A model generated the notes under the pieces. The model saw only the letters and a program-made list of their open reading frames with translations, did no database searches and was not told the DNA's origin. Made by a program: the position numbers and the translations under genes. DNA of 64,000 bases from Deltaproteobacteria bacterium (GTDB lineage Bacteria > Desulfobacterota > GWC2-55-46): the NCBI GenBank assembly GCA_016234935.1, contig JACRNL010000011.1, forward strand, positions 129,472-193,471. The letters run 5' to 3'. Shown in pieces: positions 23,791-37,913 of this stretch (position 1 is the first letter of the stretch; every line of letters starts with the position of its first letter).

Positions 23791-24687
23791 ATGAAGGACG
23801 CGTGCAACCTGTGTTTGTCGGATGGTTTTGAGCTTGTAAAATCTGCGCTGCGCGACCAGGGCGCGGAGCAAAAGGTTTATAGATGCCTTGCTTGCGGACA
23901 TGTTCAGCTCCTGCCGAGGCCGACGGCCGAGGAGGATAGCGCCTTTTACGACGCTAACCGTCAGGACAGAAACAGGGGTAAGGAGATAGATTACGAAAGG
24001 CTCCGGCTGAACAACCTCTTTGATACGGAAAGACATGTTAGTCTTATAAAAGGGCTTTGCGCGGACAAGGGTTCGCGGATACTTGATATCGGGGCGGGCT
24101 ATGGGTTTTTCGTCAACAGGCTCTACGGTGCCGGATACACAAAAGCAATGGGTATAGAGGTGAGTGAAGAAAGGCGGGCTATGGCCGTAAACCGCGGGCG
24201 CGCGGAGATTATCGACTTCGATGTTTTAAGCCCAGGGTGTGACATCGGCAGGTTCGCCATTGTAACGCTTTTTCACGTGCTGGAGCACATGGCCGACCCT
24301 GTTGCATTTTTAAGGGGTATTAAGGGCCTGCTAAGCGACGGCGCTGTCTTTGTATGTGAGGTGCCTAACGTAAACGAACTTCTTCTTGAGAGATCTAAGA
24401 CGTACAACGATTTTTATTGGATACGGGCTCACCTTAATTACTTTAGCGCCAAGACACTTGTTGATTGTTTTACAAAGGCAGGTTACGCGGGCGTACAGAT
24501 GCGCTTTGAACAGAGGTATGGGCTTTTGAATATGTGTAACTGGCTTTCAAAAGGCACGCCGCAGATAGACCATCCGGTATTCGAAATAGACGGCGCGTAT
24601 AAGCCGGTTGAGGATTTTTACAGGGAGCATCTTGCGTCAATGAGAAAGACGGACACGATAGTCGCGGTTGCAGGGCTGAAAAAATGA
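23791..24687 (+). CDS. Class I SAM methyltransferase with N-terminal CxxC...CxxC zinc ribbon
   Basis: CNLC...CLACGH zinc ribbon, then motif I ILDIGAGYG. 298 aa. Confidence 0.75.
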   Translation: MKDACNLCLSDGFELVKSALRDQGAEQKVYRCLACGHVQLLPRPTAEEDSAFYDANRQDRNRGKEIDYERLRLNNLFDTERHVSLIKGLCADKGSRILDIGAGYGFFVNRLYGAGYTKAMGIEVSEERRAMAVNRGRAEIIDFDVLSPGCDIGRFAIVTLFHVLEHMADPVAFLRGIKGLLSDGAVFVCEVPNVNELLLERSKTYNDFYWIRAHLNYFSAKTLVDCFTKAGYAGVQMRFEQRYGLLNMCNWLSKGTPQIDHPVFEIDGAYKPVEDFYREHLASMRKTDTIVAVAGLKK

Positions 24688-26624
24688 AGTATGTAGTAAT
24701 TGAGTTCATTGACGAATATAAGGCTTTTATAGAGTTTCTCGGTAAAGGTAAAGGCCGGCTTGAGGATTACGTCATAGTAGCCATTGAGCCAAAGCTCGAG
24801 GCCTATCTTGAGGCCAATGGCGTGAGATATCGCAATACCCTTAATTATTTCGACACCGGATCCCAAAAAAGGATATTGAGAGCGACCGAGAAGGTAATGG
24901 AGTATATAGAGAGAAACTTCACTTTTACGGATTCCGGCGGGCTCAGGAGCTGTTACGAAAAGGAGTTCGCGCATTATGTAAGGTTGTATATGAATCATAT
25001 GTTCAAGATGTTGGAGATATTCGGTGGTATTCGCGCGGAGGACAGCGGTTGTGAGTTATACGCGTGCGGAGGCGGTTCAATGACCGCGACTGCCATTATG
25101 TCGGACGATGAGAGATATCTCGCAAGGCTGGCGGCAGGCTTCGCTGATGCGCATAATCTTAGTTTTACGGATTTCAATGGAGATGCATCGGTATCCGCCG
25201 CGCCGGTTAGAGGCGGCTATGTAAATTCGGCAAATTTCGTTGTAAAACTCCTCAGCAGGGCAACGTTGTCGCTTTTTACCGGTAAAAAGACGATTTTTGT
25301 GCCGCGAATGGGGCATGTTTTCAAAGACATGGCAAAGCGGTTGTCGGCAAAGGACAGGCGAGTGGTCTTTGTGGCAATAGACTATACGGAAGGTTTTCTA
25401 TATGCGGCGGTCTTTAACGCGCTTTCTTTCTTCAAGTCGCTAACGGGGAGACAGCCATATAGAAATTATATCGTCAACGTGAATTTTTTCCGCAGCGCCG
25501 TATCTCATGACGAGTGTGAAAGATTGACGCAATGTGTTGATTCCATCGTCGAGCGCGGCGGACTGTTTGAATATAATGGCGTAGATTGCCGGGCGTTGAT
25601 TAAAATGAAGGTGGACGCAGGGCTTAAAGCCCACCTTTTGCGCATGCTCCACAGCTCGCATAATCTCAGTTATATGTTCGGCAGGATGAAAAGGTGGATG
25701 GTGATGTCGTTTTCCGGGCTCGACGCGATGGCCGTGGCCGGGGAGCTTACAAGAAGGCTCGGCGAAAGGTCTTTGTTTGTTTCCCACGGCGCGCATCCGG
25801 CGCCGTCGGATGAGTATCATGAAATAGAGCTTTTACGGCTGTGCAGGAGTTTCATGCTCAGCGACTACACGCACGTTGCTCTGAGCAGTCCCGTGCAGGA
25901 GGAGCATCTTCGTTACTTTAAGCGCAAATACGATTGGGTCGGTAATATTGAATTGAAGACAGGTCCGCTGGTTTTTGCCGACGTGATGGATATGGATAAA
26001 TCCGAAAGCAAAATAAGACTGGGCATACCTCCGGGCAACATTGTGCTGACTCATGCCACGACCACCAAGGCAAGGCACGGCGAAAGGTATTATTTTCTCG
26101 AAACATTGGATGAGTTTTTTGCGAGCCTTTCTGATATTGTCCGGTGCGTGGATGAGCGCCGCGGCGTGAGCCTGATAATAAGGGTCCATCCGGGGTTCCG
26201 TTTGAATGATGAAGAGATAAAAGCGCTTTTGCCGGCGTCTGCGAAATTCATTATACACAGGGATGGCCCCTTTAGCGAGGCGCTCTCGGCCACGGACGTC
26301 CTTATAAGTTATTCTTCGACCGCTATAGACGAGGCGCTCATGAATAAAATCCCGGTCTTGCTTTACGACAGGTGGAGCAGGTATAATCATTTCAAGACAG
26401 GTGTTTTTGAGGGGTCTTCGTCGCCGGATATTTTTCCTGTATGTTATGTGAACGCAAGAGAAAAACTGGCCGGAGCGGTTGAATATATGCTGGGAAAGAC
26501 CATGGCTGTTGATAAAAAAGATTTTGACAATGGCAGGTTCCGCTACTCGGAAGATTATTCCGAAAACCTCTTTAAGTTCGTTGAGGGCTCCTTGAATGCG
26601 CGTCAGCCCGGAGGGTTGCCATGA
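24684..26624 (+). CDS. Large hypothetical protein with GT-B-like C-terminal signature (putative glycosyltransferase), 646 aa
   Basis: C-terminal ...VLISYSSTAIDEALMNKIPVLLYD is a TagF/GT-B-like donor-domain motif. AT-shifted composition. Confidence 0.5.
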   Translation: MKYVVIEFIDEYKAFIEFLGKGKGRLEDYVIVAIEPKLEAYLEANGVRYRNTLNYFDTGSQKRILRATEKVMEYIERNFTFTDSGGLRSCYEKEFAHYVRLYMNHMFKMLEIFGGIRAEDSGCELYACGGGSMTATAIMSDDERYLARLAAGFADAHNLSFTDFNGDASVSAAPVRGGYVNSANFVVKLLSRATLSLFTGKKTIFVPRMGHVFKDMAKRLSAKDRRVVFVAIDYTEGFLYAAVFNALSFFKSLTGRQPYRNYIVNVNFFRSAVSHDECERLTQCVDSIVERGGLFEYNGVDCRALIKMKVDAGLKAHLLRMLHSSHNLSYMFGRMKRWMVMSFSGLDAMAVAGELTRRLGERSLFVSHGAHPAPSDEYHEIELLRLCRSFMLSDYTHVALSSPVQEEHLRYFKRKYDWVGNIELKTGPLVFADVMDMDKSESKIRLGIPPGNIVLTHATTTKARHGERYYFLETLDEFFASLSDIVRCVDERRGVSLIIRVHPGFRLNDEEIKALLPASAKFIIHRDGPFSEALSATDVLISYSSTAIDEALMNKIPVLLYDRWSRYNHFKTGVFEGSSSPDIFPVCYVNAREKLAGAVEYMLGKTMAVDKKDFDNGRFRYSEDYSENLFKFVEGSLNARQPGGLP

Positions 26625-27286
26625 GGACAGTCGGATTTATCCCATCGAAATTGAATAGTGAACGGGTGCCTTTAAAGAACATAAAAGATCTGGGCGGCAT
26701 TCCTCTTATTAACTACACCGTGTGCACGCTGAACAAGGTCGCGGCTGTGGACGAGATAGTCATTTTCGCCTCAGAGCCGTCCATCTGCGATTACGTGCAG
26801 CATGGCCTTAAATACAAGTTTATCCAAAGGCCGGCCTGCCTCGATACGCAGGAGGCGACGATACAGGATATCATCCGTGAGTTTTTGAAAAGGGACAGCG
26901 CTGACACGGTGGTGCTCATGCACTGCACCTCGCCTTTCCTAAAATCAGCGACAATCGCGGACTGCGTTGAAAAGGTCAACTCCGGCCGATACGAATCCGC
27001 ATTTACGGCCAATGAGATAAAAAAGTTCTGCTGGTTCAAGGGCAACCCGCTGAACTATTCCCTCTCGAAGCCGACCCCGCGCACGCAGGACATTGCCCCT
27101 GTAATAGTCGAGCAGTCGAGCCTTTATGTTTTTAAACGCGAGGTCTTTGAAAAGACCGGCCAGCGCATTTCCGACAGGCCCTATGTCAAGGCGATAGACC
27201 ATTTCGAGGGGCATGACATTGACACGCCGGAGGACTTCCGCGTGGCGGAATTGATAGTCAACACGGGTATGTTCGAGCTTTCATGA
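26621..27286 (+). CDS. pseF: CMP-pseudaminic acid synthetase PseF (acylneuraminate cytidylyltransferase family)
   Basis: MRTVGFIPSKLNSERVPLKNIKDLGGIPLINYTV NeuA-type N-terminus. 221 aa. Confidence 0.85.
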   Translation: MRTVGFIPSKLNSERVPLKNIKDLGGIPLINYTVCTLNKVAAVDEIVIFASEPSICDYVQHGLKYKFIQRPACLDTQEATIQDIIREFLKRDSADTVVLMHCTSPFLKSATIADCVEKVNSGRYESAFTANEIKKFCWFKGNPLNYSLSKPTPRTQDIAPVIVEQSSLYVFKREVFEKTGQRISDRPYVKAIDHFEGHDIDTPEDFRVAELIVNTGMFELS

Positions 27287-28434
27287 CAATAACGAACTGC
27301 TCCATATTTAAAAGATATCCTGTTTCTTTCGGTTCATCCGGCGTCAGCGCGGGCTATGAGATACTCGTCGGCAGGGGTATAACCCCGGCCATTGCAGATT
27401 TCCTCGCGCAAAAGACGAAGGACGACAGAGTCATTGTCGTCTGCGACGACTATTTCAAGGGGCGCATCGCTTCTTTGACAGATGCGCTCGCAAAGGCCGG
27501 CTTTAGCGTAAACGTTTACAGCTTCGAGGGCGGCAAGCACCACAAGAACATCAACGAGGCAATGCGCATATACGAGGCGCTGGAAAAGAGTGACTTCGCG
27601 CGCGATTCGACCATGATAGCCGTCGGAGGCGGCGTCATAGGAGACCTCGCGGGCTTCGTGGCAAGCACCTACTTGAGGGGGATGAACCTCATACACGTCC
27701 CGTCGTCGCTGACCGCGATGATAGACTCTTCCATAGGCGGCAAGGTCGCCATAAACTTCAGAAAGACGGTCAACGCCATCGGCAACTACTACCATCCGAT
27801 ATTAAATGTCATTGACCTTGACTTTATGGACACGCTGCCGCCGAGGGATTATCTTGCCGGGCTTGCGGAGATAATCAAATGCGCGGTGATAGCCGACAAA
27901 GAGCTTTTCGATTACCTCGACGTCAACTCCGAAGCGGTGCTCCGGCGTGAGGAAGTTGCGCTTTTGAAGATAATCTACCGCGCCATAGAGATAAAGCTCG
28001 ACCATGTGAGGGATGACGTAAGGGAGCAGAGTATAAGGCTGAAGCTGAACTACGGGCATACGATGGGCCATGCCGTGGAGATTTCTACCGGCATGTTTGA
28101 AGAGGTCTACAGGCACGGCGAGGGCGTTGCCATCGGCATGGTCGGGGCGGCGCATATCGCGAGGGCGTTTTTAAAGCAGGGCGATGAAATATTAAAGAGG
28201 CATGAGGCGGTGCTTGAAAAATACGGCCTGCCGGTTAAGTGCGCATCCGGCGCTATCGGGTTTGATGCTGATTTGCTAAAAAAGGAATGCCTTAGAAATA
28301 TCTTCAAGGATAAAAAGAAAAAGGACGCGATGCTTCGCTTTGTCCTGCCGGTTGCGATAGGCAGGTGCGAGGTATACGCGGGGATACCGGACGAGATGCT
28401 TCAGAAGGCGTTTGACTACATAATAGGCCAATGA
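27283..28434 (+). CDS. 3-dehydroquinate synthase-like sugar-phosphate cyclase family protein
   Basis: GGGVIGDLAGFVASTYLRGMNLIHVPSSLTAMIDSSIGGKVAINF is the DHQS-family NAD and metal site. 383 aa. Sits inside the glycan operon, not an aro context. Confidence 0.75.
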   Translation: MTITNCSIFKRYPVSFGSSGVSAGYEILVGRGITPAIADFLAQKTKDDRVIVVCDDYFKGRIASLTDALAKAGFSVNVYSFEGGKHHKNINEAMRIYEALEKSDFARDSTMIAVGGGVIGDLAGFVASTYLRGMNLIHVPSSLTAMIDSSIGGKVAINFRKTVNAIGNYYHPILNVIDLDFMDTLPPRDYLAGLAEIIKCAVIADKELFDYLDVNSEAVLRREEVALLKIIYRAIEIKLDHVRDDVREQSIRLKLNYGHTMGHAVEISTGMFEEVYRHGEGVAIGMVGAAHIARAFLKQGDEILKRHEAVLEKYGLPVKCASGAIGFDADLLKKECLRNIFKDKKKKDAMLRFVLPVAIGRCEVYAGIPDEMLQKAFDYIIGQ

Positions 28435-28462
28435 TGACGGTGAAAGACATTATTTCAAAATT

Positions 28463-28511
28463 CCCCTTAACCCCTTGAAGGGGCTGAGCCCCCTCAGGGG
28501 GTTAAGCCCCC
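28463..28511. repeat. Dispersed palindromic repeat family R1 (ccccttgaagggg / cccccTCAggggg units)
   Basis: Seen directly. Related copies at 33708-33734, 37877-37913 (inverted) and 58748-58788. Here followed by ggggggaag + T7, which is terminator-like. Confidence 0.85.
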
Positions 28512-28539
28512 TTTTACAAAGGGGGGAAGTTTTTTTATT

Positions 28540-28616
28540 CCTCCCCAGCACCACTTTCCGTTACTGGCATATGTATCTAATAGAAATGTTGGCGCCGGAA
28601 AGTGGTGCTGGGGAGG
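28540..28616. promoter_or_regulatory. Perfect 21-bp-stem inverted repeat (cctccccagcaccactttccg ... cggaaagtggtgctggggagg) with a 35-nt AT-rich loop, 16 nt upstream of the SDR gene start
   Basis: Seen directly. A degenerate short-loop version recurs at 63253-63305. Confidence 0.7.
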
Positions 28617-28632
28617 GTAGGGAGGATTTACG

Positions 28633-29421
28633 ATGTCGCAGTGTGGCAGGGGGGAGATGACGGACAAAAGATTTTCCATAAAAGACAGGGTCTGCGTTGT
28701 AACAGGCGCGGGCAAGGGCATCGGCAGGGAGACTGCAAGGCTCTTTTATGAAGAAGGGGCTTTCCTCGCGCTCATCACGAGGGACGGCAAAGACCTGCAA
28801 TCGCTTAAGACGGAGCTTGACCTTGATGACAGGCGCGTCCTCTTGTTTGAGGGCGACGTGTCCGATGAAAAGACCGTCAAAAGATTCATTGCCGAGGCCG
28901 CTGAAAAATTCGGCAGGATAGACGTCCTTGTAAACAACGCGGGCATGAGGTTTAGAAAAAAGCTCCTTGAGACAACGCCTGACGAATGGGCGCGGGTGAT
29001 GAACACGAACCTTACGAGCGTCTACCTCATGTGCCGCGAGGCAGGCCCGCACATGATAAGGCAGAAATGGGGCAGGGTCATAAACATCGCGTCCGTCATC
29101 GGAACGCTCGGCCTTGCCGAGCTTACGGCGTACGGCGCGTCAAAGGGCGGGATGCTAACGTTCACGAAGTGCCTCGCGCTCGAATGGGCGGGGCATAACA
29201 TAAACGTCAACGCCGTTGCCCCGGGCTTTTGCGAGACATCCTACGCTGAAAGTTTTAAAAAGAAAGAGGAGCTTTATAAATTCACCATCGAGAGAACGCC
29301 GCAGAAAAGGTGGGGCTCGTCAGCCGACGTGGCGGCGGCATGCCTTTTCCTGGCCTCCGGGGAGGCATCCTTCATAACCGGAGAGGTGCTGAGCGTGGAC
29401 GGCGGGTGGAGCGCATGGTAG
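28633..29421 (+). CDS. SDR family oxidoreductase (FabG-like)
   Basis: TGAGKGIGRE Rossmann motif and catalytic Y/K region (AYGASK). SD gggagg 7 nt upstream. Confidence 0.8.
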   Translation: MSQCGRGEMTDKRFSIKDRVCVVTGAGKGIGRETARLFYEEGAFLALITRDGKDLQSLKTELDLDDRRVLLFEGDVSDEKTVKRFIAEAAEKFGRIDVLVNNAGMRFRKKLLETTPDEWARVMNTNLTSVYLMCREAGPHMIRQKWGRVINIASVIGTLGLAELTAYGASKGGMLTFTKCLALEWAGHNINVNAVAPGFCETSYAESFKKKEELYKFTIERTPQKRWGSSADVAAACLFLASGEASFITGEVLSVDGGWSAW

Positions 29422-29465
29422 GCGATGAGCGTGGAACGACCGTTCAACCTGGAAGGGGTTTCTAA

Positions 29466-30896
29466 TTGAAGATACTGTTTATTCTGCCGGACGTTGATTC
29501 GTTCCACAGGCTTAATATACACTTCGGGATAGCCACCCTTGCCGGGTTTCTAAAGGCCAACGGCTATAACGACATTAGATTTCTTGCGGTTACGAGCGTA
29601 GAGGACTATGCGCGCATAATACGCGAGGTGGAGGCGTATAAGCCCGATATCGTAGGGTTTACATCCGTTGAGACGCAGTTCAAGCATGTTATCGCCCTTT
29701 CAGAGAAGATAAAAGAGGCGCATAAATGCATCGTCGTGCTCGGCGGGGTCTTCATCACGCTATTTCCTGAGAGCGTCAAGGACGCAAAGGCCCTTGACGG
29801 GGCCTTTAAGGGCGAGAGCGAACAGGCGCTGCTTAATTTCGTCCGGGCCGTTGAAAATGGGGCGGATTACAGGCAGGTTAATAACTTCTGTTATTACGAT
29901 GAAAAGGAAGGCAGGGTCATCCAGAACAGGCTGTCGCCAATGGAGGACAACCTCGACCTTTTTGGAATACCCGACCGCGGGATATTCGATTTCCAGAGCG
30001 TCATCGACTCCTACGGCGGGGCCGCGCCATTCATGTTCAACCGCGGCTGTCCGTATAACTGCTCGTTTTGCTCCAACCACGCGCTGGCATCCGTCTACGG
30101 CAGGCTGAGCAACAAGACCAGGAGAAGGAGCGTTGACCTGTGCATAAAAGAGATAAAGGGCGTCACTTCGAGCTATAAGCTCGAAGTCATACATGTCTGG
30201 GACGATCTTTTCACATCGCACAGGAAGTGGATGCAGGAGTTCCTTGATAAATACAAAAAAGAGGTCGGGCTGCCTTTCATGTGCACGACGCGGTCAAACC
30301 TCTGCGATGAAGAGCTCTTTAAGGCCCTTAAAGACGGCGGCTGCTACAGGGTGCACATGAGTCTTGAGTCAGGCAACGACTTTGTAAGAAATAAGGTCAT
30401 GAGGAGAAATATCTCAAAGGCGCAGATAGAAAAGTCGTTCGGCCTTGCCCGTAAATACGGAATCGAGGTCAGCGCGTCTTCCATCATCGGTCTGCCGTTT
30501 GAGACCCCGGAAATGATAGATGAGACTATCGGCCTCCTGGGCTCGCTCAAGGTGGAAAGCTGCGGGGTGAATATCTTTCATCCGTATAAGGGTACGCACC
30601 TTTACAAGGTCTGCGAGGAATACGGGATGCTTGTTAAGGAGGATGAGATGCATGGCATCATGGAAAGAAGGGAGAGCATATTGAATCTCCCGCATGTAAG
30701 CAGGGAGAAGCTCAAGCATTACTTTGACAATTTCGAGATGTTGGTGAGGCAGAAGGAAGGCGCCCTGCCTTACCTTAAATGCAGGCTGAAGGCGACCGCG
30801 AAGAAGCTTCTCCCTGAGACCATACAGGGCGTGATAAGGAAGGCACGTAAAAAGAAAGGCAGAGTGCAGGACTTTCCGGACGGTCTTGAGGAATGA
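29466..30896 (+). CDS. Cobalamin (B12)-binding radical SAM protein, class B
   Basis: N-terminal B12-binding domain. CxxxCxxC motif CPYNCSFC. 476 aa. TTG start. Confidence 0.8.
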   Translation: MKILFILPDVDSFHRLNIHFGIATLAGFLKANGYNDIRFLAVTSVEDYARIIREVEAYKPDIVGFTSVETQFKHVIALSEKIKEAHKCIVVLGGVFITLFPESVKDAKALDGAFKGESEQALLNFVRAVENGADYRQVNNFCYYDEKEGRVIQNRLSPMEDNLDLFGIPDRGIFDFQSVIDSYGGAAPFMFNRGCPYNCSFCSNHALASVYGRLSNKTRRRSVDLCIKEIKGVTSSYKLEVIHVWDDLFTSHRKWMQEFLDKYKKEVGLPFMCTTRSNLCDEELFKALKDGGCYRVHMSLESGNDFVRNKVMRRNISKAQIEKSFGLARKYGIEVSASSIIGLPFETPEMIDETIGLLGSLKVESCGVNIFHPYKGTHLYKVCEEYGMLVKEDEMHGIMERRESILNLPHVSREKLKHYFDNFEMLVRQKEGALPYLKCRLKATAKKLLPETIQGVIRKARKKKGRVQDFPDGLEE

Positions 30897-30909
30897 TAGA
30901 AGGTATGGC

Positions 30910-31680
30910 ATGAGCCGCATCATGAACGGCATTAAGAGAAGGCTCAGGAATATCTCCAAGCTCAAGGGCGCGTGGAGGCCCGGGTTTTTGTGGCTTTATA
31001 AAAACCGTTATCTCCGTATGGACGCCAACGTCGACATAAACGACTTAAGGCGGCGGCGCTTCCATCTGGACCGCTACGAGTTCGCCGCGCGCTCGATACA
31101 GGAGATTAAAAAGGCGGGCGCGTCCATACTCGACGCCGCATGCGGCACCGGCTACGGGACGAATATCCTTGAAAAGAGCGGGGCAGGGCGCGTGATAGGC
31201 GTTGACATAAGCCCTGAGGCAATAGAATACGCGCAGAAGAAATACGGTAGCGGAGTCGCGTCTTTTAAGGCGTCGGACGTGAGTAAGCTCGATAAGGCCG
31301 CGCTTTGCGCGGACGGCTTTGACGCTGTCGTGTCGTTCGAGACCATAGAGCATATCGATGATCCGCTGGCATTTTTAAAGTGCGTAGCCGGCCTGCTTAA
31401 AAAAGACGGCATCTTCATAGTCTCCACCCCGAATAAATGGGGCGTAACAAAAGACCACAAGATAGACTACGATTACGGGTTGTTCAGGGATCATCTGGAA
31501 AAGTTTTTTGAAATAGAATCCATATGGGCGCAAAACAGCGGCTGCATGGAGGAGTGGATAAACAGGGGACAGGAAAGAAGGCTCATAAGGGCGGCTCCGC
31601 AGAATATCGAAGAGGCCGAATGTTTTCTCGCCATATGCAGGCAAAAGTCAACAAAGCCCGCGGACGCTGAAAAAAGATGA
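30910..31680 (+). CDS. Class I SAM-dependent methyltransferase
   Basis: Motif I ILDAACGTGYG. Start chosen at ATG 30910 (SD gaagg). The ORF is also open from 30886. Confidence 0.7.
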   Translation: MSRIMNGIKRRLRNISKLKGAWRPGFLWLYKNRYLRMDANVDINDLRRRRFHLDRYEFAARSIQEIKKAGASILDAACGTGYGTNILEKSGAGRVIGVDISPEAIEYAQKKYGSGVASFKASDVSKLDKAALCADGFDAVVSFETIEHIDDPLAFLKCVAGLLKKDGIFIVSTPNKWGVTKDHKIDYDYGLFRDHLEKFFEIESIWAQNSGCMEEWINRGQERRLIRAAPQNIEEAECFLAICRQKSTKPADAEKR

Positions 31681-32708
31681 CCGTAATGGCAGACATAGAC
31701 GCAGGGCCGCCTATTTTCCGGCACACAGGCAGGGCGCACATCAGGCTCGGCAAGGGGCAAAAGGCCGTCCGCGACGCGCTCATTGGAAAACTTGATCAAG
31801 GTATATACCGGCTTGAAGAGGTCAAGTGCCTGTGCGGCATGACGGAGGATGTTGTTATTTCCGAGACCGACAGATACGGTCTGCCGCTTAAGACCGTCAT
31901 ATGCACTTACTGCGGCCTTCTGAGGACAAACCCGAGGCTTGACGCAGGTTCGCTTGACGGTTTCTACGCGAACGAATACCGGGACCTGTACATGGGGGCC
32001 GACTACGGCGACATGGACAGCTACTTTCTCGACATGGCCGCAAGGGGACGGGAAGCGCTTGACCTCATTAGAAAGACCGCGCCCTGGGTTGACCTGAAAA
32101 AGGCCGATGTGCTTGAGGTCGGCTGCTCCGCCGGCGGCGTGCTCTTTCCTTTTCTCGAGGCGGGCGCAAGGGTCAAGGGGTTTGACCATGACAGGCGCTA
32201 TCTGGATTACGGCAATAAGCGGGAACCGGCATTGAATCTTCTGCCGGGCGGCGTGGAAACGCTTGAAAAGGAAGATTGCAAATACGATATCATCTTGATA
32301 AACCACGTCATGGAGCACCTTGCCGATCCCGCGGGCGCGGCCTCGGCGGCAAGAAAGAGGCTCAAGCCGGGCGGGCTTTGCTATGTCTCCGTGCCCGGCC
32401 TGAAGAACCCCGCTTACTACAACAGCCCCGTAAAAAGTTTTTTAGGCTCGCTTCACATAGGGCATCTATGGCATTTTTCAAGGCTGACGCTTCGGCGCCT
32501 GTTAAAGGACTTTGACATGCTTTATATAGACGACGAAGTGCGGGCCGTATGCGCCTTGTCGCGGGCGGGAAGAGTTGAAAAGGATTTTCCGTCAGAGTAT
32601 GCATCGAACATGGAATTTATCCGGGACTATGAAAATGCCTTTGCGTGGAAGTTAAGGCGCGCAAGGAACGTCATTAGAAATATCCGCCATTTGATCAAGC
32701 TCGTGTAG
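31677..32708 (+). CDS. Class I SAM methyltransferase with N-terminal zinc ribbon
   Basis: CLCG...CTYCG zinc ribbon, then motif I VLEVGCSAGG. 343 aa. Same architecture as 23791-24687. Confidence 0.7.
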   Translation: MTVMADIDAGPPIFRHTGRAHIRLGKGQKAVRDALIGKLDQGIYRLEEVKCLCGMTEDVVISETDRYGLPLKTVICTYCGLLRTNPRLDAGSLDGFYANEYRDLYMGADYGDMDSYFLDMAARGREALDLIRKTAPWVDLKKADVLEVGCSAGGVLFPFLEAGARVKGFDHDRRYLDYGNKREPALNLLPGGVETLEKEDCKYDIILINHVMEHLADPAGAASAARKRLKPGGLCYVSVPGLKNPAYYNSPVKSFLGSLHIGHLWHFSRLTLRRLLKDFDMLYIDDEVRAVCALSRAGRVEKDFPSEYASNMEFIRDYENAFAWKLRRARNVIRNIRHLIKLV

Positions 32709-32743
32709 TTTCAGGCCAGACCTTTGCCAGACATCCGAGGGAT

Positions 32744-33673
32744 ATGTCAAAAATACCGGAACCGGTAAAATACATAGGCAAAAAATATATCCTCAACCTC
32801 ATCAAGAGGAAGAGGCTCGCGGCTCCGCCTTTTCCGCCCGAGTTGTGGATAGAGAACACCAACCACTGCAACGCGCGGTGCGTTATGTGTCCGCGCGATC
32901 TGCACACGCGCCCTCTGGGCATCATGAAGCTTTCTTTGTTTACGCGGCTCATGAGCGAGGCGTCCGCGCACGCCGCGAAAATAAAGAGGGTGCACCTGCA
33001 TAATTACGGAGAGCCGCTCTTGGACAAAGACCTGCCTGAGAGGATAAGGCTGGCTAAAAGGGCCGGCATAAAAGAGGTCTATTTTGTCACCAACGCGTCG
33101 CTCCTTACTCCCGAAAAATCGAAAGAGATAATCGAAGCGGGCCTTGATGAGTTCAAGATAAGTTTTTACGGCACGGACAGGGAAACTTACAACGCGACGA
33201 TGAGGGAGCTTGATTTTGACAGGTCTATCCAGAACGTCAGAGATTTCTTCAGCGTGCGCCGGAAGCTCAAGGCCCGGCGTCCCGGCGTCATCATCCAGTA
33301 TCTCGTCCAGCCGTTGAATATGGCCAAGACAGGGGAGTTTCTTGCAATATTCAAGCCGCTTGTAAATAAAGAGCTTGGCGACAGCCTCAGCATATGCCAT
33401 CTGCATAACTTCGGCGGCGGGCGTGATTACAGGAAGACGGCGAGGATTTCCGGCATCTGCAACTATCCGTGGCGGACGATAGTCATCCTGCACGACGGAA
33501 GGGTCGTGACATGCTGTCTGGATTATAACGGCCTGCAGGTAATGGGCGACGTCAACAAACAAACGATAGAGGAGATATGGAACGGGGACGCCTACCAAAA
33601 GGCAAGGGAGAGTTTCAAGAGGCTTGACTACGGCGGCTATCCTGTGTGCTTAAAGTGCGACATAATAAGATAA
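32744..33673 (+). CDS. Radical SAM protein with C-terminal SPASM/twitch-like Cys cluster
   Basis: CxxxCxxC motif CNARCVMC. C-terminal Cys-rich segment ...VTCCLDY...YPVCLKCD. 309 aa. Confidence 0.75.
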   Translation: MSKIPEPVKYIGKKYILNLIKRKRLAAPPFPPELWIENTNHCNARCVMCPRDLHTRPLGIMKLSLFTRLMSEASAHAAKIKRVHLHNYGEPLLDKDLPERIRLAKRAGIKEVYFVTNASLLTPEKSKEIIEAGLDEFKISFYGTDRETYNATMRELDFDRSIQNVRDFFSVRRKLKARRPGVIIQYLVQPLNMAKTGEFLAIFKPLVNKELGDSLSICHLHNFGGGRDYRKTARISGICNYPWRTIVILHDGRVVTCCLDYNGLQVMGDVNKQTIEEIWNGDAYQKARESFKRLDYGGYPVCLKCDIIR

Positions 33674-33707
33674 CCCCTGTCAGCGGTGAAAAGCGTCATT
33701 ACAAAAT

Positions 33708-33734
33708 CCCCTTGAAGGGGCTGAGCCCCCTTAG
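33708..33734. repeat. Repeat family R1 copy (partial)
   Basis: ccccttgaaggggctgagcccccttag; compare 28463-28511. Confidence 0.8.
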
Positions 33735-33769
33735 CCCTCTTTTCCAAAGGTGGGAAATAAAAATATGAG

Positions 33770-35590
33770 ATGATGAAAATAATCCGTTTGTCAGATATTG
33801 GAAGGCTTCCGGTCTTGGACGCGGCTAAGGCGCGTCAATGCTGTTTTGTTGACCTTATAGGCGGCCTCGTGCGTCGCGGCGGCGCGCCTGTGCGCGGCGG
33901 CATCAGGGAGATAAGGCTTGAAGGGCTTACGCCGGCGGAGAAGAAAATCTGCCGGCTGGATTATATCGACGCGATAGCCGGGCTTGGCGCGGACTTTTCC
34001 TCGCCTGAGTGGTGGGCAAACGCAGCCTCTGAAAAAAACGAGCACACGTCAGAGCACTTTAAAAACCTGTGTCTGTTTTACTTACTTGTAAAGGCCCTGA
34101 AGGCTGTTGATGACGTAATCGTCTACGTCGTATGTAACGACGCGGTGGCCCTGCAGCTTTGGGCGTGGTGCGGCCGCGCAGGCATAAAGATAACCGGCGT
34201 GGGAAAGCGGCCCTTTGTTACGGGGCGGTTTGATGAAGGGGTAAGGACGTTTAAGGCAGTGAAGGCGGCCTTTGGTGTTGCTATAAGGGCGGTAGTCCGT
34301 AAACTCTACCTGTTCGTTGTCGCGGGGGCGCATATAAGAAAAAACCTTGACCGGACAAAGGACTATTATGTAATAAGGTCATGGATAAACAAGGACGCGC
34401 TCAGACAGTGCGTTTATGCGAAAGACCCGTATTTCGGCAGGCTCCCGGAGACGGCCGTTGAAAGGGGTTTTAATACGCTGATAGTCGCGGGCATACTAAA
34501 CAACTTCACTGAAACCGTCCGGGGATTGAAGAGAGTTGATGCACTTATCGTCCCTGAGGAATATTTTTTGAGCCTTTCTGATATCGTCCGTGCCTTGTTT
34601 CGTCTTAGCCTTAGAAGGACGCGCCTTAAAAGGCCAGTGATGTTCAGCGGAGTTGACGTATCGGCGATATACGAGGCCGAGATAGAAAAGGGGTATCTGG
34701 ACGCCTCTTACACAAAGAACATCCTCAGGTATTTCATTGCCGCAAGGCTTGCGTGTTCCATAAGGTTCGGCCTGTACACACAGACATATGAAAACTACGC
34801 GTGGGAAAAAATGATGATACTCGGCATACGTAAAAACAGGCCGCAGGCGAGGATACTCGGCTTCCAGCACGCGTTCGTGTCGGAGGATTCGTTCAAGTAT
34901 TTTACAGGCGCAAAGGAAAGGGATATCGCACCGCTGCCCGACGGTATCATCACAATGGGCAGGGCGACGAAAAATATTCTTCAAAGTTACGGCAATTACC
35001 CTGCGGGCATTTTGACCGAGGGATGCGCCCTCAGGCAGGAGTATCTTGCCGGGGTAAAGATTTTTAACAGGCGGCGCTTTGGCAGGGTGGTCGTGCCGCT
35101 GACCATGATCGCGAAGGAGAGCGCATTGACGCTTGATTTCCTTTGCTCGTCGGGCCTTGCGTCCTCGGGCATAAAGGTTATTGTAAGGTGCCACCCGGCT
35201 GCCCCGTTTGAGACCTTTCAAAGACTCCTTGCCGAGGAGTTGCCGGACAGCTTCGTCTTTGACAGCGCGCGGAGCGTTGAGGAGGAGTTGAGGCAATCAG
35301 ACATGGTGCTTTACACATGGACGACCGTGGCGGCGGAGGCGCTTAGGATGGGCCTGCCGGTCATTTACCTCGACGTGCTTTCTCCCCTGCGCGTTGATCC
35401 GCTCTTTGAATGCGATGCGCTTAAAAAAAGCGTCAGCGTGCCTGAAGGGCTTATTCCTGCGATGGATGGTTTTTATAACATGACGGACGAAGCGTTCAGC
35501 GCCGAGCAGGCCGGCGCGCAGAGTTATCTAAAGGATTATTTTTATCCGGTGACGCCGAAAAATCTTGCTCCATTTTTTCCAGGACAATGA
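33770..35590 (+). CDS. Large hypothetical protein with GT-B-like C-terminal signature (putative glycosyltransferase), 606 aa
   Basis: C-terminal ...SDMVLYTWTTVAAEALRMGLPVIYLD. Third member of the large-protein set, alongside the 20199 and 24684 genes. Confidence 0.45.
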   Translation: MMKIIRLSDIGRLPVLDAAKARQCCFVDLIGGLVRRGGAPVRGGIREIRLEGLTPAEKKICRLDYIDAIAGLGADFSSPEWWANAASEKNEHTSEHFKNLCLFYLLVKALKAVDDVIVYVVCNDAVALQLWAWCGRAGIKITGVGKRPFVTGRFDEGVRTFKAVKAAFGVAIRAVVRKLYLFVVAGAHIRKNLDRTKDYYVIRSWINKDALRQCVYAKDPYFGRLPETAVERGFNTLIVAGILNNFTETVRGLKRVDALIVPEEYFLSLSDIVRALFRLSLRRTRLKRPVMFSGVDVSAIYEAEIEKGYLDASYTKNILRYFIAARLACSIRFGLYTQTYENYAWEKMMILGIRKNRPQARILGFQHAFVSEDSFKYFTGAKERDIAPLPDGIITMGRATKNILQSYGNYPAGILTEGCALRQEYLAGVKIFNRRRFGRVVVPLTMIAKESALTLDFLCSSGLASSGIKVIVRCHPAAPFETFQRLLAEELPDSFVFDSARSVEEELRQSDMVLYTWTTVAAEALRMGLPVIYLDVLSPLRVDPLFECDALKKSVSVPEGLIPAMDGFYNMTDEAFSAEQAGAQSYLKDYFYPVTPKNLAPFFPGQ

Positions 35591-36465
35591 CGGCAGGTAG
35601 CATGAAGTCAAAATACAGTTCCACGAAAATGTTTATGCAGAGGCTCTCGGACAGGATGAAGGCGGTCAGCAACGTCTTCAGGAAGATGGCGCTTTCTACT
35701 CCTGTCGGCGCGAACCTTTCTCTCGGCCGCATGGAGAGGAAAAATCCTCTGTTCGAGGCCGTTGAGATAGAGACAACTACCATATGCAACAGGAAGTGCT
35801 CCTACTGTCCGAACGCGAATTTGGCAAGGCCGGCAAAAAACATGGACGAGGCGCTGTTTCGTTCCATCATAGACAGCCTCGGCGAGATAGGCTTTTCCGG
35901 CAGGGTCTCTCCGCACTTTTACGGCGAGCCTCTTGTTGACAAGCGTATACTGAAGTTTCTTGCGTACACGAGGGAAAGGCTCCCGAAGGCGCTTATAAAG
36001 CTCTTTACAAACGGCGACCTCTTGACCTATGAACTTTTTTTAAAGCTCCTTGACGCCGGGGTTGACGTGGTCAGGATAGCGCAGCATGATCCCCGGCCGC
36101 CGAAGACAGTTGTTGAAACTCTCAGGAGGATAAAAGAAAACGGCCTCATGCGGCATGTCGAGTACGTGAAGTATTATAATAATGAAAAGGATTTGACGAA
36201 CAGGGGCGGCCTCGTTGACGTGAAGCCGTCTAAAAGAAAGATATTCTGCGACTATGTCTCGTGCGCCACGGTGGACTACGAGGGGAACGTCCTTCTTTGC
36301 TGTCAGGACTATCTGTCCAAGCACAGGTTCGGGAATCTCAAAAAGGAAAGGCTCGTTGACGTATGGAACAACGCGCGCTACAAGGCGCTGCGTGACAAGA
36401 TAAAATGCGGCATGTGGCCGCTTGAGATATGCAGGGTTTGCGCCGGAGTGCGGAAGGCGTCCTGA
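35587..36465 (+). CDS. Radical SAM protein with C-terminal SPASM/twitch-like Cys cluster
   Basis: CxxxCxxC motif CNRKCSYC. C-terminal ...VLLCCQDY...CGMWPLEICRVCAG. 292 aa. Paralogous in architecture to the 32744 gene. Confidence 0.75.
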   Translation: MTAGSMKSKYSSTKMFMQRLSDRMKAVSNVFRKMALSTPVGANLSLGRMERKNPLFEAVEIETTTICNRKCSYCPNANLARPAKNMDEALFRSIIDSLGEIGFSGRVSPHFYGEPLVDKRILKFLAYTRERLPKALIKLFTNGDLLTYELFLKLLDAGVDVVRIAQHDPRPPKTVVETLRRIKENGLMRHVEYVKYYNNEKDLTNRGGLVDVKPSKRKIFCDYVSCATVDYEGNVLLCCQDYLSKHRFGNLKKERLVDVWNNARYKALRDKIKCGMWPLEICRVCAGVRKAS

Positions 36466-36508
36466 GTCGTCTGTTAGTCTATGCCCGCCGCAGGCGGGAA
36501 TTAAATAT

Positions 36509-36538
36509 TTGCTAATTATGGCTGTAATAAGTATAATA
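36509..36538 (+). promoter_or_regulatory. Putative sigma70-type promoter (TTGCTA - 18 nt - TATAAT), preceded by GC hairpin cccgccgcaggcggg at 36484-36498
   Basis: Seen directly in the 187-bp spacer before the GT4 gene. Weak call. Confidence 0.35.
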
Positions 36539-36652
36539 TTTTGGCTTGAAAGGCTGCAAGCAGCGCGGTTTTTGAAGGAGTTTTCGCTGTTTTTTCCGCT
36601 TTGAGCCTGTTCTGATACGGCGGCACGCCGGATATCCGTCACCGGAATTGTT

Positions 36653-37825: not shown

Positions 37826-37876
37826 GCGGCCCCCGCTTAGGGCACGCGAGGGCAGGAACGGTTTGATAGGACGAGG

Positions 37877-37913
37877 GTTGAACCCCCTGAGGGGGTTCGA
37901 CCCCTTCAAGGGG
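37877..37913. repeat. Repeat family R1 copy, inverted orientation
   Basis: aaccccctgagggggttcgaccccttcaagggg is the reverse complement of the 28463 element. Confidence 0.8.

Follow-up and report, generated by a model that had tools for sequence, protein, structure and literature searches.

The window analysed here, a stretch of 64,000 nucleotides from an uncultured Deltaproteobacteria bacterium, carries two radical SAM genes (rSAM1 and rSAM2) on either side of a gene for a 606-aa protein. The locus raises the question of what these two enzymes act on: a sugar, a carbocycle, a protein or a peptide. We consider it probable that both are BtrN-type twitch enzymes tailoring a sugar for a surface glycan, together with a dedicated transferase.

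Gene arrangement of the locus

The three ORFs were called on the + strand, with two conserved groups of genes upstream.

24684..29421, + strand: whole conserved upstream cassette, beginning with a 646-aa protein of no assigned family (Pfam, NCBIfam)
26621-27286, + strand: CTP_transf_3 (221 aa) of the cassette (Pfam, NCBIfam)
27283-28434, + strand: dehydroquinate-synthase-like (DHQS-like) gene of the cassette (Pfam, NCBIfam)
28633-29421, + strand: SDR of the cassette (Pfam, NCBIfam)
29466..32708, + strand: conserved upstream partner block, B12 radical SAM plus two methyltransferases (synteny)
29466-30896, + strand: B12-binding radical SAM partner (Pfam)
30886-31680, + strand: methyltransferase partner (Pfam)
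31677-32708, + strand: second methyltransferase partner (Pfam)
32744..33673, + strand: rSAM1, predicted twitch-type radical SAM enzyme, 309 aa (ORF, Pfam, BtrN match)
33708..33734, no strand: GC-rich palindrome in the gap from rSAM1 to the 606-aa gene, core CCCCTTGAAGGGGCTGAGCCCCC
33770..35590, + strand: GT-B-fold protein of 606 aa, putative transferase with a CMP- or CDP-sugar as donor (ORF, AF2 fold)
35587..36465, + strand: rSAM2, predicted BtrN-like twitch radical SAM enzyme, 292 aa (ORF, Pfam, BtrN match)

The preliminary description had the radical SAM pair bracketing a GT-B-like protein within a sugar locus, and both the coordinates and the AlphaFold model of the 606-aa protein agree with this. 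The start of rSAM2 overlaps the stop of the 606-aa gene by 4 bp. PseB, PseC, PseG and PseI are encoded at the locus, all above their equivalog cutoffs, and the pseudaminic acid pathway is complete. Also present are LegB, a glucose-1-phosphate cytidylyltransferase (CDP-glucose), a Wzx flippase, GT2 and GT4 genes, and the CTP-transferase/DHQS-like/SDR cassette. The core of the palindromic element has four matches in the window (two exact, two with three mismatches), all of them intergenic, while none was expected from shuffles.

Domain class of the two radical SAM proteins

Both ORFs scored above the Pfam gathering cutoffs for Radical_SAM (PF04055; 58.8 for rSAM1 and 45.9 for rSAM2, cutoff 29.5) and for SPASM (PF13186; 59.5 and 40.9, cutoff 21.5). 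They are thus radical SAM proteins with a C-terminal auxiliary-cluster domain, as first described, and their C-terminal Cys clusters do match a SPASM profile. The motifs are as follows.

32867..32890, + strand: rSAM1 CxxxCxxC (C42, C46, C49), predicted ligands of the SAM-binding [4Fe-4S] cluster (alignment)
33458..33658, + strand: rSAM1 twitch domain, C239-x12-G252-x4-C257(C258)...C302-x2-C305 (alignment with BtrN)
35785..35808, + strand: rSAM2 CxxxCxxC (C67, C71, C74) (alignment with BtrN)
36199-36210, + strand: rSAM2 N205-R206-G-G motif, upstream of and outside the twitch domain (alignment with BtrN)
36247..36441, + strand: rSAM2 twitch domain, C221...C238(C239)...C282-x2-C285 (alignment with BtrN)

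The N-terminal CxxxCxxC motifs noticed earlier, CNARCVMC in rSAM1 (within HCNARCVMCP) and CNRKCSYC in rSAM2 (within ICNRKCSYCP), were found and are conserved, at 99–100% in 119 rSAM1 homologs and 100% in 116 rSAM2 homologs; both triads align with C16/C20/C23 of BtrN. The searches found 966 homologs of rSAM1 and 259 of rSAM2. The four auxiliary Cys, 100% conserved in rSAM1 and 98–100% in rSAM2, align with the four auxiliary-cluster ligands of BtrN. Both chains stop 4–7 residues past the final CxxC and thus lack CX5CX3C...C of the seven-Cys motif, which leaves room for one auxiliary cluster only. This places both proteins in the twitch class (one auxiliary cluster, BtrN type). The earlier SPASM/twitch label therefore holds for twitch but not for full SPASM.

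BtrN (2-deoxy-scyllo-inosamine dehydrogenase of the butirosin pathway; PDB 4M7T/4M7S), which like the two proteins has about 250–300 aa and an N-terminal CxxxCxxC, matched rSAM2 along its whole length by phmmer with an E value of 2.8e-37 over residues 51–288 (34% identity over 240 aa), and rSAM1 with 8.7e-16 and an identity of only 22%. It was also the top PDB fold match (4m7t, E 1e-12, TMt 0.77) of the rSAM1 AF2 model (pLDDT 89), ahead of BlsE (rank 2), SuiB and DesII (rank 4). N151 and R152 of BtrN correspond to N205 and R206 of rSAM2 (97% and 100% conserved), and H117 and D190 are retained there in the alignment, whereas Arg152 is not kept in rSAM1, which reads N-F-G-G. Both families also differ from BtrN in a near-invariant extra Cys adjoining the second auxiliary ligand (CC; CF in BtrN): C258 of rSAM1 (93% conserved) and C239 of rSAM2 (100%) stand where BtrN has Phe.

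The pair had been called architecturally similar, which holds, but the two are not equivalent: only rSAM1 is tightly coupled to the 606-aa protein. With only 25% identity (E 2e-16), rSAM1 and rSAM2 are distant paralogs of two different subfamilies rather than products of a recent duplication.

The Pfam SPASM match, along with weak NCBIfam matches to PqqE, WgkB, StsB and PapB (17–37 bits), could be read as a sign that the enzymes are SPASM-type maturases of some small, unannotated precursor peptide (RiPP). We regard this as highly improbable: every peptide-maturase match is more than 10-fold under its cutoff, the predicted twitch domain has a single auxiliary cluster, and Pfam shows just Radical_SAM and SPASM in the two proteins, with no RRE or other N-terminal domain. 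The small ORFs in the intergenic gaps are short, span the repeated palindromic element and include none plausible as a precursor, in agreement with the earlier remark that no precursor-peptide ORF is visible. Moreover, the neighbouring genes in all the syntenic loci encode sugar-nucleotide enzymes, glycosyltransferases and flippases.

The 606-aa protein

The 606-aa protein matches no Pfam family and has 4841 relatives among 1.84 billion representatives. Its AF2 model (pLDDT 89.7, pTM 0.90) matched GT-B proteins in Foldseek with E values of about 1e-8 and a target-normalised TM (TMt) of 0.49–0.57 for single-domain GT-B matches; these similarities are at fold level only, with about 10% identity and TMt about 0.5. 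The model thus predicts a two-Rossmann GT-B fold, and the protein may transfer a sugar activated with CMP or CDP. Its C-terminal Rossmann half contains an 'HP' motif in the family alignment:

35186..35197, + strand: R473-C-H475-P476 of the 606-aa protein

The 32 family members aligned all keep R473, H475 and P476 (R-x-H-P), although HP is a motif of two residues, which limits the donor assignment. In bacterial sialyltransferases the HP motif binds CMP-Neu5Ac (PMC2169525), and the known Pse/Leg transferases are GT-B/TagB-like proteins with an HP motif, encoded beside CMP-nonulosonate genes (PMC5420450). In GT-B fold and HP motif the 606-aa protein resembles the sialyl/nonulosonate transferases and those of the TagB/TagF type (GT38/52/80; T. 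forsythia Tanf_01245). Its structural matches include TagF and a TagF-like capsule polymerase, and its gene stands beside CTP_transf_3 and Pse genes. However, it is about 150–200 aa longer, belongs to no Pfam or CAZy-type family, and no D/E-D/E-G motif was identified in it, in contrast to the bacterial GT-B sialyl/nonulosonate transferases. TIGR04326 (O_ant_LIC13510), an uncharacterised family of about 600 aa likewise found in surface-carbohydrate loci, aligns with its C-terminal 200 residues (E 3e-15), but at 55.6 bits (cutoff 250) the 606-aa protein is a distant relative at most and not a member.

Three large GT-B-like proteins had been proposed for the locus. The fold holds for the 606-aa protein; the 646-aa paralog, which has RVHP in place of R473-C-H475-P476, resembles the 606 family only over 74 columns at the C-terminus (hhalign probability 78%), and the 703-aa protein has no detectable similarity to that family.

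Conservation of the gene neighbourhood

An rSAM1 ortholog was found upstream of and strictly adjacent to the close 606 orthologs in 9/9 loci, from Deltaproteobacteria, Nitrospiraceae, Omnitrophota and metagenomes, and this recurrence indicates that the arrangement is not due to chance. rSAM2 follows the pair in only three of the nine, its relatives elsewhere lying in other glycan loci. Only rSAM1 is therefore tightly coupled to the 606-aa protein, and rSAM2 is an optional add-on. Orthologs of the B12 radical SAM/methyltransferase genes (53–66% identity) lie directly upstream in L004, L006, L015, L017, L018, L019 and L020; the CTP_transf_3/DHQS-like/SDR trio keeps its order in L003, L004, L006, L015, L017 and L020; and a 646-aa ortholog is present in L003, L004, L017 and L020. 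Relatives of rSAM1 or rSAM2 were examined at 11 loci beyond the window; 10 of these are glycan clusters, and homologs were thus seen in glycan rather than sulfatase or RiPP contexts. The exception, L016, has an rSAM1 relative (54% identity) amid ACP, ketosynthase and ABC-transporter genes, with no clear glycan locus.

The strict adjacency in all nine loci would also suit an enzyme that modifies the 606-aa or another protein, or installs a cofactor, in the manner of anaerobic sulfatase or metalloenzyme maturases, and C122, C419 and C548 are nearly invariant in the 606 family. The top NCBIfam matches, too, are TIGR04317 (W_rSAM_matur) and TIGR04311 (rSAM_Geo_metal), respectively a tungsten-cofactor oxidoreductase maturase and a putative metalloenzyme maturase. 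But neither protein reached any NCBIfam equivalog, these two matches being far below cutoff (110 bits against 380 and 82 against 400). In L014 and L016 an rSAM1 family member has no 606 ortholog next to it, in L002, L036 and L037 the rSAM2 relatives lack a 606 homolog altogether, and there is no sulfatase in the locus. Sequence and fold alike make BtrN, a small-molecule enzyme, the closest relative of solved structure. We judge a protein substrate, raised in the preliminary description, to be quite unlikely.

The cassette suggests another route. The DHQS-like enzyme would make a dehydroquinate-type carbocyclic acid from DAHP, the SDR would reduce it, and the 221-aa CTP_transf_3 would convert the product to a CMP ester. 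Ring carbinols of this cyclitol would next be oxidised or epimerised by the BtrN-like enzymes, in the way that BtrN acts on 2-deoxy-scyllo-inosamine, and the 606-aa GT-B protein would then transfer the cyclitol. In the window and in the six loci with the trio, the cassette precedes rSAM1-606 or rSAM2, its genes being 54–80% identical across phyla. It includes neither an aldolase nor a synthase, which would make DAHP from central metabolism a natural input. At 318.6, the DHQS-like protein clears the aroB equivalog cutoff of 305, and AroB active-site residues are kept in 7/7 orthologs aligned to V. cholerae AroB; we presume, after the A. nidulans DHQS structure, that they bind NAD, Zn, phosphate and carboxylate. 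BtrN's cyclitol substrate is itself made by a DHQS homolog. On the other hand, rSAM1-606 has no cassette within 10 kb in L018, the DHQS-like gene is absent from the rSAM2-relative loci L002, L036 and L037, and it could simply be the host's aroB. To our knowledge, no glycan has a quinate-type residue, and CMP activation and transfer of a carbocycle would be chemically unprecedented for the enzyme family. We therefore hold this route to be doubtful, though less so than the protein or peptide readings.

Probable chemistry on a sugar

Sugar tailoring is the reading we prefer. BtrN, BlsE and DesII, all among the best fold matches of rSAM1, act on cyclitols or sugars, which counts for this reading. 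DesII acts on TDP-4-amino-4,6-dideoxyglucose and BlsE on cytosylglucuronate, both by radical chemistry, and through PseC the locus supplies 4-amino-4,6-dideoxy sugar nucleotides of a comparable kind. DesII and BlsE differ from the two proteins in auxiliary-domain organisation and reactions (deamination, decarboxylation), and they are remote in sequence, BlsE matching with an E value of 2.4e-5 and DesII not being recovered by the sequence search. BtrN differs in context, belonging to an aminoglycoside cluster and not to a surface-glycan locus (Pse, LegB, CDP-glucose, Wzx); here there is no DOI-synthase-type cyclase, and the DHQS-like gene retains the DAHP-binding residues.

HygY is reportedly a twitch enzyme in which, according to the title of its paper, loss of the donor Cys unmasks dehydrogenase activity. 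BtrN, whose twitch domain binds a Cys4 auxiliary cluster, carries out a two-electron alcohol oxidation (PMC10337720; PMC9012708) on a cyclitol, 2-deoxy-scyllo-inosamine (PMC9012708). In the radical SAM epimerases NeoN and EpeE, the latter of twitch type, the Cys hydrogen donors are C249 (PMC10991966) and C223 (PMC13012085), respectively. NeoN and HygY (sugar) and EpeE (peptide) are radical SAM enzymes whose substrate radical is quenched by such a conserved Cys; the likeness of NeoN and HygY to rSAM1 and rSAM2 proposed here is one of chemistry, not of sequence alignment, and a twitch domain is shown among these only for EpeE and, going by the paper title, HygY. The extra Cys absent from BtrN thus hints at possible epimerisation. 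Because of the BtrN homology, dehydrogenase or epimerase chemistry is favoured; of the radical epimerase or dehydratase first suggested, the former fits and the latter found no specific support. Most likely both enzymes oxidise or invert a sugar carbon.

SAM would be cleaved at the CxxxCxxC [4Fe-4S] cluster to give a 5'-deoxyadenosyl radical, which would abstract H from a ring carbon of the substrate. This substrate is most likely an amino-deoxy or acidic sugar in nucleotide-activated form, made by enzymes of the locus. The substrate radical may then pass an electron to the single Cys4-ligated auxiliary cluster, giving a keto-sugar as with the dehydrogenase BtrN, or the conserved Cys may give H back on the opposite face and invert the stereocentre, as in NeoN, HygY and EpeE. 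The 606-aa transferase would install the tailored residue. The conserved core would comprise rSAM1, one or two methyltransferases and/or the B12 radical SAM, and the 606-aa protein, with rSAM2 as an accessory tailoring step. This would place BtrN-like enzymes in cell-surface glycan synthesis, a role so far undescribed for the type.

Two twitch-domain radical SAM proteins related to BtrN

Three genes lie on the + strand at exactly the positions given in the preliminary description:

32744-33673, + strand: rSAM1, 309 aa, containing HCNARCVMCP
33770-35590, + strand: the middle protein, 606 aa
35587-36465, + strand: rSAM2, 292 aa, containing ICNRKCSYCP

The 606-aa gene and rSAM2 share 4 bp, at the stop of the former and the start of the latter. 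Both rSAM1 and rSAM2 were above the gathering scores of PF04055 Radical_SAM (58.8 and 45.9 bits, respectively; cutoff 29.5) and of the Pfam SPASM model (59.5 and 40.9 bits; cutoff 21.5), which agrees with the earlier remark that the two are architecturally similar. The three SAM-cluster Cys residues of CxxxCxxC are 99–100% conserved in 119 homologs of the rSAM1 family and 116 of the rSAM2 family. Judged by this motif and by PF04055, both proteins are members of the radical SAM superfamily. Their identity to each other is 25% (E 2e-16), which indicates a common architecture and different subfamilies, and rules out recent duplication. Both subfamilies are large and unnamed, with at least 966 cluster representatives for rSAM1 and at least 259 for rSAM2.

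SPASM domains, with two auxiliary clusters, have the seven-Cys motif CX9-15GX4C-gap-CX2CX5CX3C-gap-C. Only the C-x12-G-x4-C ... C-x2-C part of it was found in rSAM1 and rSAM2, which end 4 and 7 residues, respectively, after the CxxC, and the CX5CX3C...C part is absent. A full SPASM domain was therefore rejected. The four auxiliary Cys (C239/C257/C302/C305 in rSAM1 and C221/C238/C282/C285 in rSAM2; 98–100% conserved in the same 119 and 116 homologs) align with the four ligands of the single auxiliary cluster of BtrN, the 2-deoxy-scyllo-inosamine (DOIA) dehydrogenase of the butirosin pathway. These results together identify rSAM1 and rSAM2, at the sequence level, as twitch-domain radical SAM proteins with one predicted auxiliary [4Fe-4S] cluster. 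The earlier term "SPASM/twitch-type" thus holds for the profile match and for twitch, but not for full SPASM. The Pfam SPASM model still matches both because twitch is a truncated SPASM domain (PMC9012708). BtrN is itself a twitch enzyme, whose Cys4 auxiliary cluster has been proposed as the electron acceptor (PMC10337720; PMC9012708).

Among solved structures, BtrN was the only strong match for the two proteins. rSAM2 matched it at E 2.8e-37 over residues 51-288 (34% identity over 240 aa), and rSAM1 at E 8.7e-16 (22% identity). The nearest PDB fold to the AlphaFold model of rSAM1 (pLDDT 89.0, pTM 0.87; 56-sequence alignment) was also BtrN (E 1e-12, TM 0.77 on BtrN), followed by BlsE, SuiB, DesII, MoaA, EpeE, and anSME. 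In the comparison with known sugar-acting radical SAM enzymes that had been proposed earlier, BtrN is thus the top fold match of rSAM1, with BlsE and DesII also near. rSAM2 and its family keep N151-R152-G-G, H117, and D190 of BtrN, whereas rSAM1 has N-F-G-G in place of N-R-G-G. The N-R-G-G sequence kept in rSAM2 is only suggestive of BtrN-type dehydrogenase chemistry, that is, two-electron oxidation of a secondary alcohol with the auxiliary cluster as acceptor. The rSAM1 and rSAM2 families differ from BtrN in having CC where BtrN has C-F; the extra Cys, next to the second auxiliary ligand, is 93% conserved in the rSAM1 family and 100% in the rSAM2 family.

The surrounding glycan locus

The glycan locus extends over 9103-43819, with all genes on the same (+) strand. 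Bit scores are followed by cutoffs:

Within 9103-18671, + strand: PseB (494 bits; 408)
Within 9103-18671, + strand: PseC (511 bits; 423)
11362-12891, + strand: first B12-binding radical SAM protein, after PseC
Within 9103-18671, + strand, before PseG: GFO/MocA oxidoreductase, 294-aa CTP_transf_3 protein, class-III (glutamate-1-semialdehyde-aminomutase-like) aminotransferase
Within 9103-18671, + strand: PseG (308 bits; 154), with a GNAT next
Within 9103-18671, + strand: PseI (483 bits; 340), then a second GNAT and a methyltransferase
20199-22310, + strand, next in order: 703-aa protein, no Pfam or NCBIfam family
Following in this order, + strand: Wzx-type flippase, methyltransferase
24684-26624, + strand, next in order: 646-aa protein, no Pfam or NCBIfam family
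26621-29421, + strand, downstream of the 646-aa protein: cassette of 221-aa CTP_transf_3, dehydroquinate-synthase-like (DHQS-like), and SDR proteins
29466-30896, + strand: second B12-binding radical SAM protein, then two methyltransferases, rSAM1, the 606-aa protein, and rSAM2
After rSAM2 and before LegB, + strand: GT4
Within 37919-41458, + strand: LegB (528 bits; 475)
Within 37919-41458, + strand: mannose-1-phosphate-guanylyltransferase-like nucleotidyltransferase
Within 37919-41458, + strand: glucose-1-phosphate cytidylyltransferase (312 bits; 300)
Last genes named, + strand: epimerases and GT2

The pseudaminic acid pathway at 9103-18671 is complete; PseB, PseC, PseG, and PseI all exceed their NCBIfam equivalog cutoffs. 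Its interruption by the B12 radical SAM, oxidoreductase, CTP_transf_3, and aminotransferase genes suggests a further-modified Pse derivative. The genes at 37919-41458 indicate that this locus has extra branches, of Leg type and for CDP-hexose; six homologous loci from other genomes or metagenomes (L007, L012, L018, L020, L028, and L030) likewise have CDP-hexose genes after 606-family genes. No flagellin, sulfatase, or peptide-precursor genes were found in the glycan locus. Promoter and terminator counts were no higher than in shuffles, and operon boundaries therefore cannot be claimed. The Rfam search of the window found no riboswitch, and its sole match was a tRNA:

58554-58625: tRNA

A GC-rich palindromic element with the core CCCCTTGAAGGGGCTGAGCCCCC had four matches, all in intergenic gaps, and none in 100 shuffles:

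28471-28515: palindromic element
33708-33734: palindromic element, in the gap between rSAM1 and the 606-aa gene
37875-37913: palindromic element
58748-58770: palindromic element

Possible identities are a REP-like element and a hairpin for transcript processing. Outside the glycan locus, the gene at 9-3311 encodes an 1100-aa protein in which an MFS transporter is joined to an acyltransferase and to an AMP-binding (acyl-ACP-synthetase-like) domain, an arrangement similar to a lysophospholipid transporter fused with a reacylation system. A chaperone-usher fimbrial cluster (SCPU spore-coat-U protein, PapD-like chaperone, and outer-membrane usher) lies downstream at 49121-54398.

Tests for peptide and sulfatase maturation

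The preliminary description saw no small precursor-peptide ORF between the two radical SAM genes. Our small-ORF search likewise found none plausible in the gaps adjoining them (33674-33769 and 36466-36652), where ORFs of at least 20 aa only read through the palindromic element. No NCBIfam equivalog came near its cutoff for either protein. The peptide-maturase models among the listed NCBIfam hits all fell far below their cutoffs, and neither protein has an RRE or any other extra Pfam domain. Their domain is of the twitch kind, not SPASM, and glycan genes surround them. It is thus extremely unlikely that rSAM1 and rSAM2 act on a precursor peptide, and their identity as RiPP radical SAM/SPASM maturases was rejected.

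Anaerobic sulfatase-maturating enzymes (anSMEs) have a full SPASM domain and a sulfatase partner gene. No anSME model was present among the best 25 of 38 NCBIfam hits of rSAM1 or the best 25 of 26 of rSAM2, anSME ranked 21st or lower in the rSAM1 fold search, and no sulfatase gene was found in the window or the syntenic loci. This identity was also rejected.

The 606-aa protein and the other large proteins

In the NCBI annotation (P0121, 591 aa), the 606-aa protein begins 15 codons later than 33770 (33770-33814), but the longer form, with its ATG at 33770, is supported by the family alignment, in which the consensus reads MxxIIHS... No Pfam family was found for this protein. It is matched by NCBIfam TIGR04326 ("surface carbohydrate biosynthesis protein", uncharacterised) over the C-terminal 200 residues only, and membership was rejected because the score of 55.6 bits is below the cutoff of 250. 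A word-indexed search found 35 relatives, none carrying a name. An exhaustive search with the profile gave 4841 representatives at E<=1e-3 (1107 at E<=1e-30), which indicates that the protein belongs to a large uncharacterised superfamily.

The family profile had no match among PDB sequences (best, vinculin, E 0.14), so that the fold search alone was informative. The AlphaFold model (pLDDT 89.7, pTM 0.90) gave 311 PDB matches at E<=1e-3, of which the best 50 were GT-B-fold proteins. The GT-B matches include UDP-GlcNAc 2-epimerases, GT1/GT4 and other glycosyltransferases, MurG, TagF, and the TagF-like Cps3D, at E ~1e-8, with target-normalised TM of 0.49–0.57 for single-domain hits and about 10% identity. 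On the basis of this model, the 606-aa protein is a member of the GT-B fold superfamily, with two Rossmann-like domains and an inter-domain cleft, at the fold level only, and a putative transferase. At that level, the model supports the earlier term "GT-B-like". Three large proteins had been so called, and the term stands for this one; the 646-aa protein resembles the 606 family only in 74 C-terminal columns, and the 703-aa protein has no detectable similarity to it. Homologs of the 703-aa and 646-aa proteins recur in the related loci L012, L014, L015, and L028.

The shared C-terminal columns contain R-x-H-P: R473-x-H475-P476 is invariant in the 606 family, and the aligned position in the 646-aa protein is RVHP. 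Bacterial CMP-sugar (sialyl/nonulosonate) transferases have an HP motif and a D/E-D/E-G motif, with HP binding both the phosphate of CMP and the carboxylate of the sugar in bacterial sialyltransferases (PMC2169525). In Tannerella forsythia, the Pse/Leg transferases proven by genetics are GT-B/TagB-like, have the HP motif, and adjoin CMP-nonulosonate genes (PMC5420450). In the 606-aa protein no clear D/E-D/E-G motif was identified, the two-residue HP motif is itself short, and neither Pfam nor the profile search against the PDB gave a sequence-family match. By analogy, we infer that its donor may be a CMP- or CDP-sugar.

Synteny of rSAM1, rSAM2, and the 606-aa protein

Loci were gathered around homologs from genomes and metagenomes, and all proteins of the locus were mapped onto them. 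Counting 606 orthologs with at least 40% identity and usable upstream sequence, nine loci were obtained including the window (the others being L004, L006, L015, L017, L018, L019, L020, and L027), from Deltaproteobacteria, Nitrospiraceae, Omnitrophota, and environmental contigs. An rSAM1 ortholog (54–58% identity) is immediately upstream of the 606 ortholog in 9/9, except that one methyltransferase gene separates them in L006. None of the more distant 606-family loci (25–37% identity) has this pairing. Upstream of rSAM1 there is a methyltransferase and/or a B12 radical SAM ortholog; orthologs of the 29466-30896 protein (57–66% identity) occur there in L017, L018, and L020, directly adjacent in L018. 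This protein is probably a C-methylase of the same residue. The CTP_transf_3/DHQS-like/SDR cassette is found further upstream in the window, L004, L006, L015, L017, and L020, and it adjoins an rSAM2 ortholog in L003.

Only the window, L004, and L019 have rSAM2 after the 606 ortholog; in L001 it comes after a 606-like protein of 27% identity. Other glycan clusters have relatives of rSAM2 (49–61% identity) but no 606 homolog: L002, a heptose-type locus; L036, where the gene sits between two GT2 genes; and L037, a Pelotomaculum locus with rhamnose-pathway-type (Rml-like) genes, UDP-glucose dehydrogenase, and flippases. This synteny indicates that the conserved unit is one or more methylases, rSAM1, and the 606-aa protein, in this order, and that rSAM2 is a modular accessory. 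The homologs are in glycan rather than sulfatase contexts, with a single exception: L016, the only examined rSAM1 relative in a different setting, has lipid-type genes (ACP, ketosynthase, and ABC transporter).

The strict adjacency of rSAM1 and the 606-aa gene, together with weak "metalloenzyme maturase" NCBIfam hits, could be read as one or both radical SAM enzymes modifying the 606-aa protein. However, these hits have very low scores, rSAM1 and rSAM2 are related to BtrN, and both families also occur without 606, which makes protein maturation very unlikely.

Two rSAM2 homologs, P0040 and P0051 (L036 8001-8765), carry the JGI label "8-amino-3,8-dideoxy-alpha-D-manno-octulosonate transaminase" although they have Radical_SAM and SPASM domains; the label was probably carried over in error by annotation transfer. 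L004 (2206-5004), L005 (1551-3281), and the JGI contig that carries P0132 each encode a protein of about 575 aa that includes an HMGL-like aldolase domain, to which an MptE/Maf-like domain is fused in 2/3 loci. Nearby are a PfkB kinase (2/3 loci) and another CTP_transf_3, and these loci may represent a further unusual CMP-activated acid-sugar module.

The DHQS-like cassette

The best NCBIfam match of the 221-aa CTP_transf_3 protein was PseF (74.6 bits, below cutoff), while the DHQS-like protein passed the aroB model (318.6 bits; cutoff 305). The gene order of the cassette is kept at 54–80% identity in loci of Nitrospiraceae, Omnitrophota, and metagenomes. The DHQS-like homolog scored 201 bits against AroB and 117 bits against the DOI synthase 2D2X. 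The residues which we take, after the A. nidulans structure, to be the catalytic, Zn, NAD, phosphate, and carboxylate (DAHP-binding) residues of AroB are kept in 7/7 cassette orthologs. A DOI-synthase/EEVS-type reading was rejected, since the assigned DAHP-binding residues are kept and the AroB score is far above those of 2D2X, 4P53, and 5TPR.

The DHQS-like protein might make dehydroquinate, which would be reduced and activated with CMP before the BtrN-like enzymes oxidise or epimerise it. The aroB score, the kept AroB residues in a protein unlike DOI synthase or EEVS, and the fact that BtrN itself works on a cyclitol speak for such a carbocycle; but in L018 the cassette is missing within 10 kb of rSAM1 and 606, and there are rSAM2 relatives that lack it, and we regard this route as unlikely. 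It would concern the following block:

24684-36465, + strand: 646-aa GT-B-like protein, CTP_transf_3, DHQS-type, SDR, B12 radical SAM, two methyltransferases, rSAM1, 606-aa protein, rSAM2

It is a long shot that this block, from the 646-aa protein to rSAM2, is a pathway for a new CMP-activated carbocyclic ulosonic-acid mimic, which would be made from DAHP via dehydroquinate, C-/O-methylated, oxidised or epimerised on the ring by the BtrN-like enzymes, and put into a Pse-containing surface glycan of anaerobic, mostly uncultured bacteria.

Proposed role and meaning

As a general statement, it is reasonably probable that rSAM1 and rSAM2 are sugar-tailoring twitch enzymes with a dedicated transferase; any specific substrate is much less certain. 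From the BtrN homology and fold, the two predicted [4Fe-4S] sites per enzyme, the BtrN, BlsE, and DesII neighbours, the glycan context, and the co-inheritance with a GT-B protein, we infer that each would take an H atom from a sugar produced by the locus, at a ring carbon. Among such sugars would be 4-amino-4,6-dideoxy sugar nucleotides (that made by PseC, and probably more through LegB), which resemble the substrates of BtrN and DesII. The substrate radical might be oxidised via the auxiliary cluster to a ketone, as in BtrN, and this ketone could feed an aminotransferase. Alternatively, a Cys might quench the radical from the opposite face, giving epimerisation. Transfer of the residue so tailored would fall to the 606-aa protein.

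In twitch radical SAM epimerases of the HygY/NeoN type, a conserved non-ligand Cys gives an H atom to the substrate radical. In HygY this Cys is C183, and mutation of one Cys reportedly turns the enzyme into a dehydrogenase. The Cys H donor is C223 in the twitch-type epimerase EpeE (PMC13012085) and C249 in the radical SAM epimerase NeoN (PMC10991966). The extra conserved Cys of rSAM1 and rSAM2, absent from BtrN, slightly tilts the analogy toward epimerisation over dehydrogenation.

To our knowledge, the twitch radical SAM enzymes acting on sugars or cyclitols (BtrN and HygY) all serve antibiotic pathways, as does the sugar epimerase NeoN. No aminoglycoside genes (DOI synthase, DOI aminotransferase, etc.) were found in the window, and every rSAM2 context examined is a polysaccharide locus; rSAM1 and rSAM2 were therefore rejected as functional equivalents of BtrN on DOIA in the 2-deoxystreptamine pathway. 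In the literature, we found no paper that ties BtrN-like, twitch, or SPASM radical SAM enzymes to polysaccharide, O-antigen, or nonulosonic acid loci. Our analysis points to a known type of chemistry in a hitherto undescribed biological role, with a conserved uncharacterised GT-B partner.

Radical SAM sugar tailoring in anaerobes would not astonish a specialist, and the strict rSAM1-606 coupling, the extra Cys, and the DHQS-type cassette are testable leads. Two large unnamed twitch subfamilies occur in surface-polysaccharide loci of anaerobes from several phyla, and one of them, that of rSAM1, co-inherits strictly with an uncharacterised GT-B family of thousands of members. The DHQS-type cassette nearby raises the possibility of carbocyclic glycan components. 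If these enzymes are nucleotide-sugar radical dehydrogenases or epimerases, they would provide an O2- and NAD-independent route to stereochemical diversity in glycans, nonulosonic acids included, and a handle on the function of the large family of ~600-aa "surface carbohydrate biosynthesis" proteins.
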